A stretch of 63,772 nt of DNA, the filler included, from Rhabdomonas costata (lineage: Eukaryota): assembly GCA_019059605.1 (NCBI GenBank). It is 58 parts of 58 records of this genome, joined end to end, with 100 filler letters (N's around TTAATTAATTAA, not from the genome) between each part and the next. Parts side by side here need not be neighbours in the genome. Positions count along the whole stretch, not along the records: positions 6,613 to 7,614 come from JAHMHO010034364.1; positions 7,715 to 8,716 come from JAHMHO010034365.1; 56 more parts are not named here. One strand, 5' to 3'. Position numbers and translations under genes: made by a program. This document shows, piece by piece, positions 7,601 to 63,772 of the stretch; positions within the stretch are counted from its first letter, which is position 1; every line of letters begins with the position of its first letter. Under the pieces are notes generated by a model. That model did not search any database and was not told the DNA's origin. It worked only from the letters and a program-made list of their open reading frames with translations.

Positions 7601-7716
7601 CTCCCACCACCCCCNNNNNNNNNNNNNNNNNNNNNNNNNNNNNNNNNNNNNNNNNNNNTTAATTAATTAANNNNNNNNNNNNNNNNNNNNNNNNNNNNNN
7701 NNNNNNNNNNNNNNTG

Positions 7717-7776
7717 TTTGTTGTAAATTACATGAATCGTATTAGTGCTCAAGAGGCATTGAAGATGTTGATGTAA
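7717..7776 (+). CDS. 3' end of a Ser/Thr protein kinase gene (subdomain XI), 5'-truncated
   Basis: Reads FVVNYMNRISAQEALKMLM*. RISAxEAL is the classic kinase subdomain XI motif. Too short for the supplied ORF track. Confidence 0.65.
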   Translation, partial: FVVNYMNRISAQEALKMLM

Positions 7777-7778
7777 AT

Positions 7779-7819
7779 ATATTTTTTGAACTATTTTATT
7801 AAAACAGTTCAAAAAATAT
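7779..7819. terminator. AT-rich palindromic hairpin between convergent genes
   Basis: ATATTTTTTGAACT (7779-7792) pairs perfectly with AGTTCAAAAAATAT (7806-7819), then an A/C mismatch, TTTT/AAAA and a 3-nt loop. It starts 3 nt after the kinase stop codon. Confidence 0.7.
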
Positions 7820-7882
7820 GCGAAGTAAAAAAGCAAAGCAAAGCAAAGCAAGACAAGGCAATCAATGCAAAGTACAGCAAAG

Positions 7883-8500
7883 CTATGCAAAGTAGGAAGG
7901 ACAAACCAAGTAAAGTAAGTCAAGGCAAGACAAAGCTTTAACACGGCGAAGCTTTACTTCGTAATTTTCTAACTGTTCAATGAAATGACAGTTAGGATCA
8001 ACACGATCTCGGTAGCTACGAACATGATCCAGAGCTTTAACATATGTCAAAGAACACTCGCGCATTACGTGTGCCAGCACAATCGTTGCACTTCTACTTA
8101 TTCCTTTAAAGCAACACACAATGACCTCCCGGGCTTCACGTTGTTGCTGTAAGATGAAGTTGTAGCACGTGTCAAAATGTTCATCAAGTTTAACGTCGCG
8201 ATCTTCGAATGGAAGATGCAACATCGGGATTTGTTGCTGGTCAGTGTCAACAAAAGTATGTTGATCCGGAACAACAAGAATAACAGCAAAGTGTATATCC
8301 TTGTTTTTGTTAATGAATGCTTGGACATGTGCCCAACCAGTCAAGAACAGTTTCTTCCCGGTGCCGTACATTACCGTACTTACTTCCGATTTTGAAGGAG
8401 ACAACGTCTCATCACCACCCAAACTGACTGCCTGACGCGACGGAATACGTAGAGGCAACAAAAGTTTACGAGCCGACGTGGGCCTCACTGTGGTTTGCAT
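7883..8500 (-). CDS. Dual-specificity protein phosphatase, complete and intronless
   Basis: ATG at 8500. LPFED general-acid loop, VIVCCFKGISRSATIVLAHVM active-site loop (CX5R) and ALDHVRSYR..VDPNCHFIEQL C-terminal DSP motif. Confidence 0.93.
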   Translation of the reverse strand: MQTTVRPTSARKLLLPLRIPSRQAVSLGGDETLSPSKSEVSTVMYGTGKKLFLTGWAHVQAFINKNKDIHFAVILVVPDQHTFVDTDQQQIPMLHLPFEDRDVKLDEHFDTCYNFILQQQREAREVIVCCFKGISRSATIVLAHVMRECSLTYVKALDHVRSYRDRVDPNCHFIEQLENYEVKLRRVKALSCLDLLYLVCPSYFA

Positions 8501-8591
8501 TGTGATTCGCAAGTAGCAAAACGTAGAATAACTGCGTTAAGTACGTATTTACATACATAGAGATACATAAAATATGCAGTTAATTAATATT

Positions 8592-8599
8592 TCAATTTT
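8592..8599 (-). promoter_or_regulatory. AAAATTGA motif (Mimiviridae early-promoter-like) 92 nt upstream of the phosphatase ATG
   Basis: Plus-strand TCAATTTT equals minus-strand AAAATTGA, on the same strand as the DSP gene, in a very AT-rich 143-nt intergenic region. Confidence 0.5.
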
Positions 8600-8643
8600 T
8601 ATATATCTAATAGATTTAAAGAAAAAATATAATTTTTAATACA

Positions 8644-8716
8644 ATGAATCATCATGACATGTTATTTACTTTTATAAACAGTAATAACAAAGAAAAACAA
8701 GATGTAATCATAAAAA
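8644..8716 (+). CDS. 5' end of a divergent ORF of unknown function, 3'-truncated
   Basis: ATG-initiated frame MNHHDMLFTFINSNNKEKQDVIIK stays open to the contig end despite very AT-rich sequence. Confidence 0.4.
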
Positions 8717-12122: not shown

Positions 12123-12598
12123 GTGGGTTGGTTTTTTGGATGACCACGGGAGAAGCCAGTGCCAGCAGGTTGGTCGACCCAGATCATGTTTGTCAAATTT
12201 GTCCATGAATATGGATTGGGTTCAGCCTTGTGCGTTACATTGTTGAATTTTACGGGACCCTCCTCAGTGAGAACACCCGTGAGAGATGAGCAACCGGGAC
12301 CGCCGTTGAACCAGACAACAAGGTCATCGTGACCAACTTTTTCAGTTGCAGGGAACATCCAAAAGTAAAGTTGACGCGTTTCATCATGCCTTGGGCTAAC
12401 CGGCTGATAACCACCCCATGAGGGTGGTATTTCAAACGTGACATTTGGCAGCCTTGTCGGGATTTCGAACTTTTTGGTTCCTTCTGAACCTAAACGTGCA
12501 CGTAGCGCTTGTACATTATAGACCGAATCGTTTCTTGTACCGTAGGTGCCGACGACTAATGTTGCCACGACGAAATAGAACAAGCTGCACAATGACAT
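12123..12598 (-). CDS. Secreted serine carboxypeptidase (family S10), 5' part, intronless, fungal type
   Basis: Signal-peptide-like N-terminus, then LPNVTFEIPPSWGGY, LYFWMFP, VWFNGGPGCSSL, NPYSWTNLTNMIWVDQPAGTGFS. Confidence 0.93.
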
Positions 12599-13317
12599 TC
12601 TGGCGCTTATTGTACAAGATAGTTGATAAGACTGGATCCACCCCCCTCCCTTATAAAACAACGGAAGCCTTCATTAGGGTTCACGAGGCAATAGGTTAGG
12701 GTCCATTTGCAACGCTATCTGCCGCTTCAGATACCAATGACAGTTTTAATTGCCCCAGGTCGTGTCATATCGCTGCTTTTAATAAATAATCTACATATGT
12801 GGCAGTGTAGTGACTAATCTTGACAGCACTGGAGTATTGCTCGTCGCTCGTATGGAAAAAGATTAGTCGCTGTATCAGCTAGGGCATTTTCCCGCATAGA
12901 ATGCGTTGGTCATGCACACGGAACCTTTGACTTTCTCTAGACGTGGCACTTTATATGCTCTTTAAAGTAGGAAGAGCTCTTTGGCATGGTCGAGGAAATG
13001 CGCTTGATGCATGGAGTGCAATAAAAATCAATTCTTAAGGCCATCATATGGCACATCACTATCCCAATGAATGCAAGTGACTACTAGAAATATCGTGTAG
13101 CTTATGGTAGCCACCCCACAACCNNNNNNNNNNNNNNNNNNNNNNNNNNNNNNNNNNNNNNNNNNNNTTAATTAATTAANNNNNNNNNNNNNNNNNNNNN
13201 NNNNNNNNNNNNNNNNNNNNNNNAAAAACTGTTACCAGTGGTAACGGTAACCCAACGTCAGTTGTACCACAAGGCGCGTGCACTAGCCGAGCTTGATCCC
13301 TGGGGGTGGGTTGCCAG

Positions 13318-21600: not shown

Positions 21601-23348
21601 CAGCAGTTTCAGCATTGAGAATTTCTTGATTTGCTTTCAATGATTTTGTCTTGTCAGCTCACTCTTTGTGGTTGCCTTTATGCGTCTCATCATAATTCAT
21701 TAGTTCATGAAGTAAAAATGCAAATGGCAATATAACGCAAGAGAGTAAGAGAGTTAAAGAGTGCTTGGCCGAAGCACGACTGGGGTTATGCATGTACAGT
21801 ACCCCTCGAAACGCTGCGTGACCGGTGCTTGCACCCTTGGTCGGAATTTTCTGAACTCTCACCCTCGGCCGGTTGCGGTGCCCCTTGGCGGCTCTTTCGC
21901 ATCTCTTTTGCGCCGCTTGTTGACCCACCCCACAANNNNNNNNNNNNNNNNNNNNNNNNNNNNNNNNNNNNNNNNNNNNTTAATTAATTAANNNNNNNNN
22001 NNNNNNNNNNNNNNNNNNNNNNNNNNNNNNNNNNNGTTTTGGCTTCTATGCGCAGGATCACTCATAGCCACTGAAGACCAAACCAAAGCCGATAGGCCGA
22101 TGAGTGATCCTGCGCATAGAAGCCAAAGCAAAGCCAATTGTGTAATTAGTCCTGGATCTACCGTAACACCTGGTAGCAGAGGTAAAATTGAACCCACTGT
22201 CCAGAAGTTTTGAGATCCGGTGCTTTTCTTCCGTAGTCGTTCTCCTAGTTGTTGAATTTCTTTTGGTAAACGTTTCTTAATTTCCTTGAAATTGCCAAAG
22301 TTTCTGGAAACGTTGTCACTTTTAAGACAGATTTTGGAGCGGTTCAGTGAATAGACAAAGAATCACCATGTATTTTGAAACACTACAAATAATTCACATC
22401 AATTATACTTACCTCAAAACAATCCACAACACCAAGCATGATATGCTCACTCGCCGACGAACCTACAGAAGAATTGCCAAAATCGATGACAATACATCCC
22501 CTCATAATTAAATATACTCGAGCTCAAGCACCAGTTATAACATCTCCTATTGTTTGCCTTGCAACCACTTGATTTGTGTGTTTAATCTCCAATGTCAGTT
22601 GCATCGGTTAATCGAAAAACATAGTTAAACCAGAGAACATTTGGCACATTTGTCTATGTGTGTGTGTTTATCTCCACGTCTGCCATATACATTGAAAATC
22701 TTCTCCGATACAAATCCATCTCTATAACCAATGCAAGAAATGACAAGAATCTGAAGAATCTTGAATTTAAATAATCCCCTTTTTGATCAAGAAAACGATA
22801 AACAGCATCCTACAAGTGAAAGATCAGACTTGTCTACACTCACCAAAAAGCTGGAATATATGCACAAAAGTGGAATTGTAATCATGCATGGCTCCTTCAG
22901 TTGTTGCATCAAGTCTATCGGATTAAAATAACCAAGCAGCTGCCATACCATGTTGCAGTACTATGCGTCACACATGCCATGGTGGATGGCGCATATGGCT
23001 ATTTACACAAAGTCACAACCACAACCTGTGACGATTNNNNNNNNNNNNNNNNNNNNNNNNNNNNNNNNNNNNNNNNNNNNTTAATTAATTAANNNNNNNN
23101 NNNNNNNNNNNNNNNNNNNNNNNNNNNNNNNNNNNNTGTTGGTTTTGACACTCAAGAAGGCTTCGAAAGGTTAGGAAGGAGGGGGGGGGGTGCGAGCTCG
23201 CAAGCTCCTCAGAAAATAAAGCGCTTCTTGAGTGTCAAAACCAACATCTTGAACCGTGAAAATCACTGTGTGTCATCTCACATGGAAACGAAAATGAACA
23301 AAGTAACTCAGTTTTCTATTTCCAATTTGCTGTCTTTCTTTCTTTCAG

Positions 23349-26339: not shown

Positions 26340-26524
26340 NNNNNNNNNNNNNNNNNNNNNNNNNNNNNNNNNNNNNNNNNNNNTTAATTAATTAANNNNN
26401 NNNNNNNNNNNNNNNNNNNNNNNNNNNNNNNNNNNNNNNGGGGTTGGGGGGTGGAGAACCACCAAGGAAAGTGGAGTACACAAAATAGAGGGGGCAGGAA
26501 GCCTGGCCTCTCCTGTCCCACCAA

Positions 26525-27441
26525 TTGGGCCCACCCCCTAAAGTTCCCAGCCGCATCCTCAAAAGAGCTTCAGAGGAAAGAAGTGAAAGCCAACCCGCCC
26601 CAGTCAAGGGAGGAACGACCACGTCGCAGTTAGCGCTTGCAAAGAGCTCTGGTATCGGCGTTGGAAAGGCAGAGACGTTGCCCGCAGTTGTGCAAGCCAG
26701 GCTAAAGACCTTGGAAAGTGGAGCTAAAGGTCGAGAGGATGAGCCAAAATTGGAGAAAGGATATAGATCGGCTCTGAATGTGCTCCCGGTTGAAGACAAA
26801 GGCATTCGGAGGCCGCTCAGTCCATCGGCGGAGGCAGAGTCGGCGCCTCCCCTAGCGAAAACAAATTCCACCAAGGAAGAGAACCCTGCGTTGGTTCAAA
26901 GCAGGCAACGGTTGCGGGAAACTTTGTTGCAAAGCACGTCCTCTAAGTTGTCAGAAAGCGCGAAAAAGGTCCGACAACCAGGCGAAGCTCCGGTGTTGTC
27001 CGTGATAACGGAGGGGAAGGATGGTCCTTCCAAAGGTAAGTTCTCGAGTGACTCTTGTACCCAAGATAAAGCGTTGCTTTGTGAATGGAGTGTTGTGACA
27101 GAAGAGATTTCGGAGAATGCTTCATTGGAAGAGTGGTCAGAAGAACGGCAGGAGGTAGCCGTCAGCAGCATCCGTCGTGGCAAGGGAAGTTGCCCGGTAC
27201 CGCTTTTCGTGCTGCCCTTCCAAAAAGTGGGCAAGGAAGGGGATGGGTTCGTCGGGACTCCCCCCGACCCTCCCCCCCCTCAGCCGCTATTGTTTCTGCC
27301 GTTGTGGATTGGGACGATCCAAGTGAGAGCTCTGTTGGACTCAGGAGCGTCGGACTCCTTTATAAGTGAAGAGGTGGTGCAACGTTTGAGGCTACAGCTG
27401 TACCCGCTTCAGCAGAAGCTCACAGTGAGAGTGGCCAATGG
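26525..27441 (+). mobile_element. Ty3/gypsy-type LTR retrotransposon gag-pol fragment with retropepsin aspartic protease
   Basis: Intronless 305-codon ORF ending LWIGTIQVRALLDSGASDSFISEEVVQRLRLQLYPLQQKLTVRVANG (ALLDSGA..VRVANG signature). Confidence 0.85.
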
Positions 27442-59967: not shown

Positions 59968-62900
59968 CTGCGAGAGGGCGAAGCGGCCATGGAGCGGGAA
60001 GACGGGTGGGAGGGAGGCGAAGGCAGTCTGCCGATTCGGCGTGTCGTGTGCTCTCCAGTTTGAGTTTGCGAGAACTTGCATGGTGCAAGTGTCACCAAAC
60101 GCCACTTAAATTTGGCTTTTGTTCCCAAAAAGTCAAATATCACTGCGAACTTCTCTAAGCGTCGACTGAATGTACCAGCATTATATGTGTACACCTGCTG
60201 CAGGTTAAATGAGTCCCATTGCCGATCACTGCCTCTCAGGCAGTGCTTTCCTCACCAGAGTCCAAAGCAGATATTTCGACGCTATAAATGACTCCCACAT
60301 AATTCAAAACGCAAATCTCTTCGCTGGGTCAAGTACCCTCTGTTCAAGCAGAGCGCACCGTTGCGTTCGGGTCGGCCTTGAGGTCCAGAAGGGCGCATAC
60401 CAATCCGGGCCAGTCCGGGGAGTCCTCCGCGGATCCCTACGTATTGAGGAAAGATCGTTAAACACAAACNNNNNNNNNNNNNNNNNNNNNNNNNNNNNNN
60501 NNNNNNNNNNNNNTTAATTAATTAANNNNNNNNNNNNNNNNNNNNNNNNNNNNNNNNNNNNNNNNNNNNGTGGGGGTGTGCAGTATTGTGACAAGAATCG
60601 CGAGTCACCAAAGATGGACCTGGGGTAGGGAGAGCCGGGGCGACTGCCATAGGACAACGCCATGAACAAGGCAGATTATTGGTGCTGGACAATGGTATTT
60701 GTGTGGAGGGGGTAGGTGCTAACCGTTTTGACGGCGTTAAATCAGTTAGCTCCAAAATACCCAAAGGAATGTTTTGAGATGCGATTCTGCCGACACCTGG
60801 GCAGCAGTGCTAACCGTTCGAGAGATTACCAAGATATAAGCGCAGAGGCGGACTGTGGTGCACCACAAAAAGTGAATGAAAGAAGGCCTGTGCAAAGATT
60901 GAAAGCAGAGATTTGTGACGTGAGTACTGCTAAAAGTGGTCGGCGGAGGAAGCAGCCGGGTGAGGCGGGGGCGTTTTTTTTTGCTAACGTTTAACACCGT
61001 TAAGTTTGCTGACCGTCCTTAAGAGCACCACAGCCCCATTGGTAACCATTCACAGGTTCTTGAAAAGCGACTCCAGCACGTCAATTCTTTCATTACGTAG
61101 CAGTGAGCAGGAGGACAACAATATCACCTCCCCAGCCTAGAACAGCGCGTTCCAAACGCAAGTACCGCGTAGCCGGGGGCAGAGCTGCCACAGTCTCGCG
61201 GCGCGGTTTTGGAGCCAGATCGACGTATATTATCCCTGAGAACAGCAAGGTAAAATGGCTGATGGACAAGCAGCTACCAAATGCTGACAGACGCAGTCAA
61301 GCAGGGGTAGGCATGACCCCTGATCAGAGAGGTCAAAACCTTCCCCACGGCTCACCCTCAACAATCCCTGCACAAGTGCACCTGCAGCAGAATAAGGGTC
61401 CCACACGAATCCAATTGAGGTCATTACTGAGGGTAGGGAGTACGACAGAAAAGGAAGAAAGCAAAGGATAAGGTCACGGCTGAAAGAAGGTGGGATTGGA
61501 CGGAGTAGTGCGCTACTGCATCTCAAAGGAAGAAGCTGCAAAGTTCATTCCAGCCCAGGAACAACCCCCCNNNNNNNNNNNNNNNNNNNNNNNNNNNNNN
61601 NNNNNNNNNNNNNNTTAATTAATTAANNNNNNNNNNNNNNNNNNNNNNNNNNNNNNNNNNNNNNNNNNNNCTTTGATTACACACCACACCCCTTCTTTCC
61701 TCAGGCAAGTCATCTCACACTAGAAACTTCCTCCCTTGTGACGCTTTGATTACACAACACACCCACACCCACATCCACCCAAACGGGAGGGGATGATAAG
61801 TGTTTGCGCCCCGCTCAGGGGGAGGGACCGGTGTGGGCAGTGGACGATGCCTCCGGTGTTGCCGCGCTCTGCGGCATGGAAGCGGCCACTGGGAGCTGTG
61901 CGAGGGTGAGGTTGCGCCGCGGCATGGGCATCGCCCCAGTCATCCCCCGGGCACCAGAGGCCCGGTCTGAGGTCGGCAGAGTAGTATGTGACTTCGGGCG
62001 GGGAAGTCCAGGCCGCTCGCCCCTGTCAGCGCCAAAAGCCAAAAAAAATACATCGGCAGTCCGGAGTTTGGCACAAGAAAGCAACGTTGGGAATACTTAG
62101 AGGCTGGTCAAATGTGGCTCAATGCAAGCGGTCTGCAATATCTGTGGAATGGTGGTTGTCAAGGACTTTGCACTTACGTGTTAAGGGGAGGACGCTCCCA
62201 TGGCTAACCACGACTCTGCTAGAGAGTGGCCGAGCGGCAGCTACTATCGCCACTGTTGTCCAATACCATCGCTGGGCTGAGAAAAAACAATCACGGCGAG
62301 TGGTGGTGAAGAAAGCTGTGCCCTGGGGTCCAAACTCAATCAGATGGGATCTCCAGACGGACGGGATCTCCAGGTGACACCTCTACAGCCGCCACCGGCT
62401 CGCGTAATTACAGGAGGGAGACAGCCGTCGTGACAGAGACGCAGATAATAGTGTCAAAAAGTTGCAGACCTGCACCCCCCTGCTGCGCGCTGCGTGTCCC
62501 CTCCACTGCCGCAAGATCTCAGTATAGAAAATGGCTCATAAGCCCTTTTAACACGTGTATCGGACGCCGGCCCCTCGTCACTCCTCTGGGCACCCCTTGA
62601 CCTGGGCCACCTCAATCGCCATTTGGCCTGTCCAGTGATTCCCGTAACTTCGTTTAGCAGGCCACACCCCCNNNNNNNNNNNNNNNNNNNNNNNNNNNNN
62701 NNNNNNNNNNNNNNNTTAATTAATTAANNNNNNNNNNNNNNNNNNNNNNNNNNNNNNNNNNNNNNNNNNNNTTGTGTTTGTTTATTTTCAAAGCAGGTTA
62801 TTCGAACGTTTTGGTATCATTAAGTTGTAATGAAAAGACGCTCAAGACTTTTCAAAGCTTCATTGCAAACTTTTTGAGTGAATAAAGATTACTTTAATAT

Positions 62901-63772
62901 TTAAATTAATTTGCAACTTTATAAACTGTGAACTTTGTTTTTATTTGAGCAAAAATTTAAAGTAGAAAACTTCACAATTTCGGTTTTATTATATTCTTAA
63001 TCACCACCCGAGTTTAAAGATAAGAAAGTTTTGCCCGTTGTTGGCCAAAACATTTTGTTTTGAAGGAACAAGGAATGGACATTTATCTCTTTTAAATCCC
63101 GTCCAATACTGGAAATTAGTATTCTGTGTGGTTTCATTTTCCACTATTTCTGACTAGATGGTAACGCTCTCAAAAGCTGCATGATTCAAAGGCGCTTCAT
63201 TCCCAAAACCTCCTATATTTCAACCTCTTCCATATCATAAATCGAACGTTTAAAAAACATGAAACAGTCGTTATGTAGCACGCACAATATCCAAGCAAAA
63301 GCTTTATATGCTAAATGGAATCGGGAAAGACACGAATATAGGAGATGAACTTCCCGAAAACGTCTATGAGAGGCACGCCGACAAACGAATGAAACAAGAG
63401 ACTGGATTGGAGGAAGTGGGGGAACAAATCGTGTGGCACAGGGTCCGAGGAAAGAGGCCGGAGGCATATTGAAGTGCAAAAAAGTGGGCCGGGTGGCGGA
63501 GTCAAAAAATGGTGGAATCCGCAAGTCTCGCGTCTTGGCGCGAGAGGCGAGAAAAGGCCAAATCCCACCACGGCTGCGCACGTGTATAACACACAAAAGC
63601 CGGAAAAACAGGCACCCCAATGGGGGCTCCCGCACGAAAACAATGCGCAGGTCGGACGAAATCAAAAACAGAAACAATGCAGAATATGCCTGGGTGGAGG
63701 GTGTGTGAAAGAAAATCCAATCATGGTGAAGGGGTGAATGCAGGCATGTGTGGATTTTCTTTCACACCCCCC

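Follow-up and report, generated by a model that had tools for sequence, protein, structure and literature searches.

A complete dual-specificity phosphatase gene on an AT-rich contig of a Rhabdomonas costata assembly, tentatively read as a giant-virus fragment

A contig of about 1 kb (positions 7715-8716) in an assembly of Rhabdomonas costata encodes an intact Cys-based dual-specificity phosphatase (DSP), showing the full C-x5-R-S P-loop and the general-acid Asp, and both the composition and the codon usage of the contig mark it as foreign to the main genome. Our tentative reading, to which we give slightly less than an even chance, is that the contig belongs to a second, compact genome assembled together with the main eukaryote, and that it is a fragment of a giant virus (NCLDV), free or endogenised. 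The window, meaning the whole stretch of 63,772 nucleotides that was analysed, consists of 58 contigs of 1000-1002 bp each, with N...TTAATTAATTAA...N spacers between them. The features of the contig are collected in Table 1, and the DSP is the only certain gene among them.

Table 1. Features located on contig 7715-8716 (positions along the window).
Feature	Position	Strand	Basis or remark
ORF 3' end, truncated at the contig edge, kinase-like tail R-I-S-A-x-E-A-L (subdomain-XI-like)	7717..7776	+	translation, pattern
Near-perfect AT-rich palindrome, 41 nt	7779..7819		inverted-repeat scan, folding, shuffles
Degenerate (CAAAG)n-like repeat tract	7830..7933		6 copies, 68-100% identity
DSP gene, complete, intronless, 205 aa + TAG	7883..8500	-	ORF, Pfam, alignments, predicted fold
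AT-rich upstream region including a 24-codon open frame (8644-8716)	8501..8716		GC about 0.21
AAAATTGA, NCLDV early-promoter octamer	8592..8599	-	motif scan
TATATAAA, TATA-box-like or ASFV/pacmanvirus late-promoter-like TATATA	8598..8605	-	read from sequence

The phosphatase and its contig

The DSP reading frame starts with the ATG at 8500, and its last codon at 7886 is followed by the stop TAG at 7883-7885. The first-pass annotation had called a complete dual-specificity phosphatase on the minus strand, and the translated protein agrees with this call, matching the Pfam family DSPc (PF00782) with an E-value of 3.7e-22 and 79 bits (cut-off 33.5) along profile positions 1-131 of 133. Since the profile match is unbroken, there is no intron inside the domain. 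A ciliate genetic code (table 6) was rejected: the frame is open under the standard code, and under table 6 the frame, as followed by eye, has no stop left and would extend across the kinase-like ORF until the contig ends.

The protein starts with a disordered N-terminus of about 40 residues that is basic and rich in Ser and Thr, followed by the domain at residues 41-185 and a helical C-terminal tail, which is encoded by the degenerate repeat; the repeat tract overlaps the last ~17 codons and the 3' flank. The AlphaFold2 model has a mean pLDDT of 84, with values above 90 across most of residues 51-200. The P-loop reads C130-x5-R136-S137, and C130, G133, S135, R136 and S137 are invariant in both alignments, while the general acid D100 is invariant in one alignment and near-invariant in the other. 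In front of the catalytic Cys, Cys129 takes the place of His, and the protein departs here from the HC-x5-R signature. Among 206 motif instances from hits and viral ORFs this residue is His in 184, Y, F, T, N, M or D in 21, and Cys in the DSP alone. The His at this position tunes the pKa of the catalytic Cys and is not essential for membership of the DSP class. The predicted enzyme would dephosphorylate proteins of the host or the virus at Tyr and at Ser/Thr.

With a GC content of 0.364 (36.4%) the contig is the lowest of the 58, followed by two contigs at 0.395 and 0.409, and the majority lie at about 0.52; it is thus AT-rich and unlike its neighbours, as had been proposed. The DSP gene itself has a GC of 0.436, and the GC steps sharply at the ORF borders. 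The contig also turned out to be compact and intronless as described, with spacers of 106 nt (7777-7882) and 143 nt (8501-8643). An origin in the main genome itself, either as an odd patch of gene-dense, AT-rich sequence or from an old integration that has since become host DNA, appears highly improbable. The GC3 of the DSP is 0.41, compared with 0.74-0.80 in two recognisable main-genome exons (a small sample), and the contig carries neither a host-like flank nor an intron, while recognisable host genes show as short exon-sized matches. Moreover, only three of the 58 contigs have more than one 100-nt window at a GC of 0.33 or below, the other 55 having one at most. In favour of such an origin, part of contig 62772-63772 is of 19-26% GC and part of ~50% GC, so the main genome may contain AT-rich patches, and the N-terminal 50 codons of the DSP have a GC of 50.7%.

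Contig 62772-63772 and the other low-GC contig, 22036-23036, hold no convincing ORFs, and they thus give no sign of a source common with the DSP contig. Scans with Rfam and for tRNAs returned no match across the window, and a His_Phos_1 exon in it had no relative among 325 candidates. Another contig of the window encodes a Malassezia-like carboxypeptidase with 99% identity to an ENA protein, showing that the assembly is mixed.

The phosphatase had been described as one of three genes, lying between the 3' end of a kinase gene on the plus strand and a divergent plus-strand ORF. For the kinase, an ORF end of 19 codons (7717-7773, GC 0.33) with the stop TAA at 7774-7776 is present, and to judge from its last residues it may be a kinase C-terminus. 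The subdomain-XI-like pattern of this tail, written after the tail had been seen, has one match in 615,026 residues of six-frame translated viral loci and two in the 127,540 residues of the window, the tail itself included. The 19 residues are too short for Pfam, lying below the 20-residue minimum for profile matching, so that the assignment to a kinase is tentative. No kinase was found among the 46 ORFs flanking the DSP genes of 24 viral loci. The comparison took 48 ORFs from 24 of 31 viral loci, two of the 48 being the DSP genes themselves, with seven near-duplicate or baculovirus-like loci left out; no gene order shared with these 24 loci was seen. The third gene was not recovered: the open frame at 8644-8716 has a GC of 0.205, the same as the spacer, and by a rough calculation an open stretch of 24 codons is not rare by chance. 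A gene at this position is not supported.

Signals on both sides of the gene

The octamer AAAATTGA was found upstream of the phosphatase as reported before, on the strand of the gene and with its first base 99 nt upstream of the ATG. Several NCLDV families use it as an early promoter according to an excerpt of one study (PMC11788076), and excerpts of two sources report it for 44% of pacmanvirus genes and also for ASFV and some Iridoviridae (PMC11788076, PMC5294985). Dinucleotide shuffling of the 150 nt ahead of the DSP produced the octamer on the gene strand 230 times in 20000, and on either strand 574 times in 20000. The search for the octamer and for the palindrome described below followed the hypothesis, and each of the two signals was seen once. 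The whole window contains three copies of AAAATTGA compared with 3.45 expected, and enrichment is not demonstrable because the contig carries a single copy. The octamer was absent from the 150 nt upstream of all 20 viral DSP genes examined.

A second element, TATATAAA, overlaps the octamer by 2 nt and lies ~100 nt upstream of the ATG. It can be compared with the TATATA late promoter of ASFV and pacmanvirus, as far as the excerpted source describes it (PMC11788076). Elements of the TATATAAA type are expected to occur frequently by chance in DNA of 22% GC. Since the octamer overlaps this TATA-like element, a eukaryotic promoter reading fits as well.

The long AT-rich hairpin that had been noticed between the convergent stops was confirmed as the palindrome in Table 1. 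Its arms of 20 nt are 95% complementary; it starts 2 nt past the stop of the kinase-like ORF, and its far end, seen from the DSP, is 63 nt beyond the stop of that gene. Folding gave -13.7 kcal/mol (z = -4.7; 0 of 200 shuffles), and the 19 matched pairs exceed the shuffle maximum of 13, with none of 3000 shuffles reaching 19. Palindromes with at least 15 pairs within 100 nt of a stop were found for at most 11% of the ORFs per locus, in hairpin-rich viral loci. Read along the strand of the DSP gene, the hairpin loop contains AATAAA, which lies past the stop of this gene. We regard the palindrome as a candidate for a 3'-end hairpin shared by the convergent pair. Under the giant-virus reading, a viral polymerase would transcribe the DSP from the early-promoter element AAAATTGA, and the DSP and the convergent kinase-like transcripts would end at the shared palindromic hairpin, following the 'hairpin rule', which an excerpt of PMC4402537 extends to Pithovirus.

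The palindrome was not called by the terminator scan and was rejected as an intrinsic bacterial terminator, since the T-run stands on the 5' side of the core stem and the A-run on its 3' side. This bears on a further source, an AT-rich intracellular bacterium with eukaryote-like effectors (kinase and DSP), which we likewise consider highly improbable. Such a genome could be expected to yield a gene-dense, intron-free contig, and an overall GC of ~36% is typical of several protist symbionts. Against it, the palindrome has no 3' T-run, one sigma-70-like site was found compared with 2.9 expected, and a gene/spacer GC contrast of 16-22 points is unusual for bacteria. The first-pass annotation had seen no obvious Shine-Dalgarno sequence, and inspection by eye likewise found nothing AGGAGG-like ahead of the DSP ATG. 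The named homologues of the DSP are eukaryotic, and the genomes of 185,579 prokaryote species, searched with one genome per species, contain no close relative of it.

Relatives of the phosphatase and origin of the contig

Close relatives of the DSP were also absent from viral contigs and metagenome contigs. Among 1.84 billion representative proteins, a collection that includes public assemblies of sequencing runs, the closest has 38% identity, and a word-seeded protein search returned two weak matches only. The named best matches are all from eukaryotes (Paramecium bursaria, Nelumbo, a mite and Polykrikos), and eukaryotic clusters form the majority of the Atlas neighbours. Only five of the 20 nearest HMMER clusters examined carry a name, and these names are uninformative. 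All ten tree-nearest and tail-matching clusters come from metagenomes or Logan assemblies, one being called 'protein-tyrosine phosphatase' and nine having no name; a locus scan for the tree-near match P0067 led to the 25%-identical L032 only.

Viral DSPs were compared at the level of sequence, tree and fold. Thirty-one viral loci (IMG/VR) show 27-42% identity to the DSP over parts of the protein. The tree was built from 128 of 185 domain rows (all viral rows and the representatives up to P0090, with domains spanning fewer than 110 profile positions left out), and the smallest supported set that holds the DSP comprises 51 rows, 15 viral and 36 unlabelled. Foldseek matched the DSP model to human DUSPs and to viral DSPs with a probability of 1.00 and equal E-values, showing that the fold does not separate viral from cellular proteins. 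With a best match of 38%, no small supported clade in the tree and equal fold E-values, nothing links the DSP to viruses rather than to cells; viral and cellular DSPs are equally distant from it.

These neighbours suit a gene-dense eukaryote that has so far gone unsampled and has AT-rich spacers, be it a contaminant, a prey organism, a parasite or a symbiont (microsporidian-like, for instance, or some other compact protist), co-assembled at low coverage. We regard it as a real though not a probable source. The DSP would then be an ordinary atypical DUSP with a TATA-box promoter and polyadenylation after AATAAA, and the palindrome would be incidental or a regulatory site. The PDB neighbours of the protein (DUSP10, 15, 19 and 22, also DUSP5 and DUSP8), the TATATAAA element ahead of the ATG and the AATAAA downstream of the stop are in line with this. 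So are the N-terminal 40 residues, whose disordered, basic and hydroxylated character resembles that of a targeting peptide, and the microsatellite-like repeat; moreover, another foreign eukaryote, the Malassezia-like one, is demonstrably in the assembly. The GC contrast between the DSP gene and its upstream region (~21 points) is above that of all 20 viral DSP loci sampled, the largest of which is ~12 points, with one locus reaching 19 points downstream. Against a eukaryote, a gap as short as 106 nt from one convergent stop to the other would be extreme in most eukaryotes, 615 nt contain no intron, and an octamer AAAATTGA on the right strand has a chance of only ~1%. We know of no role of a 41-nt palindrome 2 nt past a stop in eukaryotic 3'-end formation. 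A homologue above 38% identity is missing, though public assemblies of sequencing runs were searched.

The giant-virus reading draws on the fit of both regulatory signals, each of which is unlikely under shuffling. The isolation of the DSP is counted for it as well, and many NCLDV families encode DSPs of the same fold, which offers a precedent by analogy. Set against a virus are the AATAAA in the hairpin loop together with the TATA-like box, which a eukaryotic Pol II reading fits equally well, the N-terminus and the pentanucleotide repeat tract, which look cellular, and the presence of other contaminants in the assembly. NCLDV core genes (MCP, PolB, A32 ATPase, VLTF3, viral RNA polymerase) do not occur on the 1002-bp contig. 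What stands of the earlier proposal of a giant-virus fragment is a foreign, compact and intronless contig with two signals; nothing ties its phosphatase to viruses rather than to cells. It is unlikely, in our estimate, that the contig stands for an undescribed giant-virus lineage with genes of ~44% GC, spacers of ~20% GC, the pan-NCLDV octamer together with the hairpin rule, which to date is documented for Mimiviridae and Pithovirus, and a convergent pair of a kinase and a Cys-Cys phosphatase.

If the contig is viral, the assembly, which has no annotated giant virus, contains one or its endogenised remnant, and the grammar of hairpin and AAAATTGA extends to a genome with genes of much higher GC than known Mimiviridae have. 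Fragments of giant viruses are already known from protist assemblies. If a contaminating eukaryote is the source, the short contigs in the tail of this assembly are of mixed origin and should be decontaminated before gene content is interpreted. Under either reading the DSP is an ordinary kind of enzyme.

Comparison with known phosphatases and viral transcription signals

The DSP has in common with the atypical and MKP-type DUSPs the DSPc match, the C-x5-R-S P-loop and the general-acid Asp. Human DUSP10, DUSP15, DUSP19 and DUSP22 are its sequence matches in the PDB at ~1e-10, and human DUSP5 and DUSP8 match its predicted fold with a target-normalised TM of ~0.8 and an rmsd of ~2 A; the identity to solved DSP structures is 30% at most. 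Unlike these enzymes, the protein has Cys129, a disordered N-terminus of 40 residues and a helical tail encoded by a repeat.

The DSPs of Nucleocytoviricota, among which the VH1 class of poxviruses belongs, have the same fold (Bodo saltans virus, iridescent viruses, Pandoravirus, Tupanvirus, Medusavirus, entomopoxvirus), with Foldseek E-values of ~1e-12 and a TMq of ~0.6 to the DSP model. Like the protein studied here, they are small, single-domain enzymes of compact genomes. They are no closer to it than cellular DSPs and form no supported clade with it.

Excerpts of two reviews give the octamer and 3' palindromic hairpins as hallmarks of the Mimiviridae (PMC6163669, PMC4402537). The contig shows one octamer on the right strand and one long palindrome past a stop, between convergent genes. 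Its two spacers measure 106 and 143 nt; for mimivirus, an excerpt of PMC5294985 gives a mean of 157 nt. In sampled viral loci the octamer lies 40-52 nt from the ATG in 7 of 13 cases, with a range of 40-150 nt, compared with 99 nt here. The label Mimiviridae/Imitervirales that the contig had first been given fails because AAAATTGA is spread across families, occurring also in pacmanvirus, ASFV and some Iridoviridae, and an assignment to the Mimiviridae is not supported. AT-rich viral DSP genes have a GC of 0.22-0.36 and a GC3 of 0.09-0.29, and with 0.436 and 0.41 the DSP gene of the contig lies far above such AT-rich, Mimiviridae-like loci.

Window composition and gene content of contig 7715-8716

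The window consists of 58 contigs, each 1000-1002 bp long, with N runs and a TTAATTAATTAA spacer between them. It thus resembles the shortest contigs at the end of a fragmented assembly, and genes adjoining across contig borders are not linked. GC content is near 0.52 in most contigs, and the three lowest values are 0.409, 0.395 and 0.364. The lowest belongs to contig 7715-8716, confirming the first-pass annotation, which had singled it out as AT-rich. Only three of the 58 contigs have two or more 100-nt windows with a GC of 0.33 or less. Inside contig 7715-8716 the composition is stepped, with 0.37-0.53 GC in the ORF region and 0.15-0.26 at 7715-7814 and 8515-8716. The GC3 of its dual-specificity phosphatase (DSP) gene is 0.41, compared to 0.80 and 0.74 in two majority-genome exons (Der1-like and His_Phos_1), showing that the contig is probably foreign to the main genome. 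We consider it very improbable that it represents a patch of host genome.

The assembly is mixed, as contig 12123-13123 demonstrates: its ORF at 12125-12598 (minus strand) codes for the N-terminal region of a serine carboxypeptidase (PF00450) that is 99% identical to an ENA metagenome protein comprising 575 member sequences; its identity to a Malassezia cuniculi protein is 73%. Judged by this protein, the contig is probably a Malassezia-like contaminant. Contig 22036-23036 has a low GC throughout (0.395), opens with an inverted repeat of ~30 nt (roughly 22041-22065 versus 22100-22124, by eye) and carries a second AAAATTGA at 22184-22191. Contig 62772-63772 is of mixed composition, the first ~250 nt having 19-26% GC and the remainder about 50%. 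No convincing ORF was found in either of these two contigs. A retroelement gag/aspartyl-protease fragment (26489-27439, plus strand; Asp_protease_2, gag-asp_proteas, RVP_2) lies in a contig with host-like GC.

Features of contig 7715-8716 (positions along the window)
Feature	Position	Strand	Remarks
Kinase-like ORF end	7717-7776	plus	19 codons and TAA stop, at contig start
Palindrome	7779-7819		41 nt, in the 106-nt gap between the two stops
CAAAG-like repeat	7830-7933		degenerate pentanucleotide repeat, encodes DSP C-terminal tail
DSP ORF	ATG at 8500, stop TAG at 7883-7885	minus	205 codons, complete
Cys129-Cys130 codons of DSP	8112-8117
AAAATTGA	8592-8599	minus	first base 99 nt upstream of DSP ATG
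Open stretch	8644-8716		24 codons, GC 0.205

Three genes had been proposed for this contig. The short ORF end at the contig start resembles the tail of kinase subdomain XI, and a kinase 3' end is plausible but unproven. The pattern was written after the target sequence had been seen; it matched once in 615,026 residues of the six-frame translation of viral loci and twice in the 127,540 residues of the window, the target itself being one of the two. The proposed divergent ORF on the plus strand has the same GC as the spacer, and we leave it out of the gene count. The contig thus carries a single certain gene together with the probable end of another. Most of the earlier observation holds: this is a compact fragment of foreign DNA, free of introns, in which a very divergent DSP gene is intact.

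The phosphatase and its relatives

The Pfam DSPc match (E 3.7e-22) runs unbroken over profile positions 1-131 of 133, and the domain is thus without an intron, in agreement with the complete, intronless gene described before. Alignment with 34 homologues showed that the catalytic Cys130, Arg136, Ser137, Gly133 and the general-acid Asp100 are conserved. In this family, the Cys thiolate attacks the phosphate and the Asp serves as general acid, and the DSP is predicted to follow the same mechanism. Its active-site signature is Cys-Cys-x5-Arg in place of His-Cys-x5-Arg; of 206 instances of the motif in hits and viral ORFs, 184 have His at the position preceding the catalytic Cys, and the target alone has Cys there. 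The AlphaFold2 model (mean pLDDT 84) has a disordered N-terminus of 40 residues, a DSP fold predicted with confidence beginning at residue 41, and a long C-terminal helix that continues into the repeat-encoded tail; a few homologues align across this tail, to residue 196. Sequence neighbours in the PDB are DUSP10, 15, 19 and 22 (about 1e-10), and fold neighbours are DUSP5 and DUSP8 (about 5e-12).

A HMMER search against 1.84 billion representatives yielded 8735 matches at E ≤0.001, the best at 7.7e-24 with 38% identity. The top matches are metagenome proteins; named ones come from Paramecium bursaria, Nelumbo, a mite and Polykrikos. No close relative was detected in IMG/VR, JGI metagenome contigs or GTDB species genomes. 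A profile-derived IMG/VR scan identified 31 viral loci with DSPs of 27-42% identity over parts of the protein, and the best of them (31% over residues 20-184) is at the same level as the best non-viral match. ESM Atlas neighbours at 0.92-0.94 are a mixture of clusters from Haptophyta, Basidiomycota, Arthropoda, Ciliophora and Nucleocytoviricota. A maximum-likelihood tree of 128 domains places the DSP on a long branch (1.23), and the smallest supported set containing it has 51 rows, 15 viral and 36 unlabelled. By Foldseek, viral DSPs, among them those of Bodo saltans virus, an iridescent virus, Pandoravirus and Tupanvirus (about 1e-12), and human DUSPs match equally well. Strong nesting in a cellular lineage, which would have refuted the first-pass reading, was thus not observed, and a viral affiliation was not confirmed either; judged from sequence and predicted fold, the DSP cannot by itself tell whose gene it is.

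One nominally viral IMG/VR contig of 911,622 bp has a PP2C gene and two loci with DSPs (L001 and L012). In the two stretches of 10 kb, ORFs of at least 100 aa span only 33-56% of the sequence, a low coverage for a giant virus. The contig may come from a eukaryote, or it may be an endogenised element whose genes are interrupted.

Regulatory signals and origin of the contig

Viral DSPs are well known, as is the occurrence of giant-virus fragments in protist assemblies. The octamer AAAATTGA and the hairpin between the convergent stops were both found as annotated, and they are the main evidence for a virus. The arms of the palindrome (20 nt) are 95% complementary (-13.7 kcal/mol, z = -4.7), and when the spacer was subjected to 3000 dinucleotide shuffles, its 19 pairs were never reached (maximum 13). 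Of 20000 shuffles of the 150-nt region preceding the DSP, 230 produced the octamer on the gene strand and 574 on either strand. Jointly, the two signals are not trivial, and a giant-virus origin of the contig is a serious possibility, which we put slightly short of even.

The octamer overlaps TATATAAA, which might be read as an ordinary TATA box, and the loop of the hairpin contains AATAAA on the strand of the DSP. Either element would fit an unsampled gene-dense eukaryote, and DNA this rich in AT should frequently contain both by chance. The N-terminus, which is disordered, basic and rich in Ser/Thr, and the pentanucleotide tract give the DSP a cellular rather than viral look, a weak inference in favour of cellular origin. 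We regard such a eukaryote as a somewhat less likely source than a giant virus.

A bacterial origin is unlikely. As stated earlier, the DSP is not preceded by a Shine-Dalgarno sequence; sigma-70-like sites are not enriched (1 versus 2.9 expected), the named homologues are eukaryotic and no prokaryote relative was found in the GTDB species genomes. The palindrome was also considered as a bacterial terminator and rejected, since its T-run lies 5' of the core stem and the terminator scan made no call.

Comparison with viral loci

According to passages in two reviews, Mimiviridae can be recognised by how often AAAATTGA and 3' motifs able to form hairpins occur in them (PMC6163669, PMC4402537), and the hairpin rule is described as obeyed by Pithovirus, too (PMC4402537). 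Among the 31 viral loci, the share of ORFs with a palindrome of at least 12 pairs within 100 nt of the stop reaches 56% in some AT-rich loci and is 0% in others. For palindromes of at least 15 pairs it does not exceed 11%, so the 19 pairs of the target are long even for viral loci. The octamer lies 99 nt from the ATG in the target versus 40-52 nt in 7 of 13 viral-locus instances (range 40-150, within 150 nt upstream), and it was found upstream of none of 20 NCLDV-type DSP genes. The gene exceeds its upstream region by about 21 GC points, whereas the difference is at most about 12 in these 20 genes; a single NCLDV-type locus has a 19-point difference, on the downstream side. The adjacent kinase and phosphatase had been interpreted as a signalling pair. 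This pair is without a conserved counterpart, since none of 46 flanking ORFs across 24 viral loci is a kinase.

The assignment to a Mimiviridae/Imitervirales-like virus is not supported. AAAATTGA is reported to precede 44% of pacmanvirus genes and to be present in ASFV and some Iridoviridae (PMC11788076), and an IIV-6 promoter starts with it (PMC5294985); the octamer is therefore not specific for Mimiviridae. In addition, coding GC (0.436) and GC3 (0.41) of the target are far above those of AT-rich Mimiviridae-like loci (0.22-0.36 and 0.09-0.29, respectively), and the furthest label that the data allow is NCLDV, with no family given.
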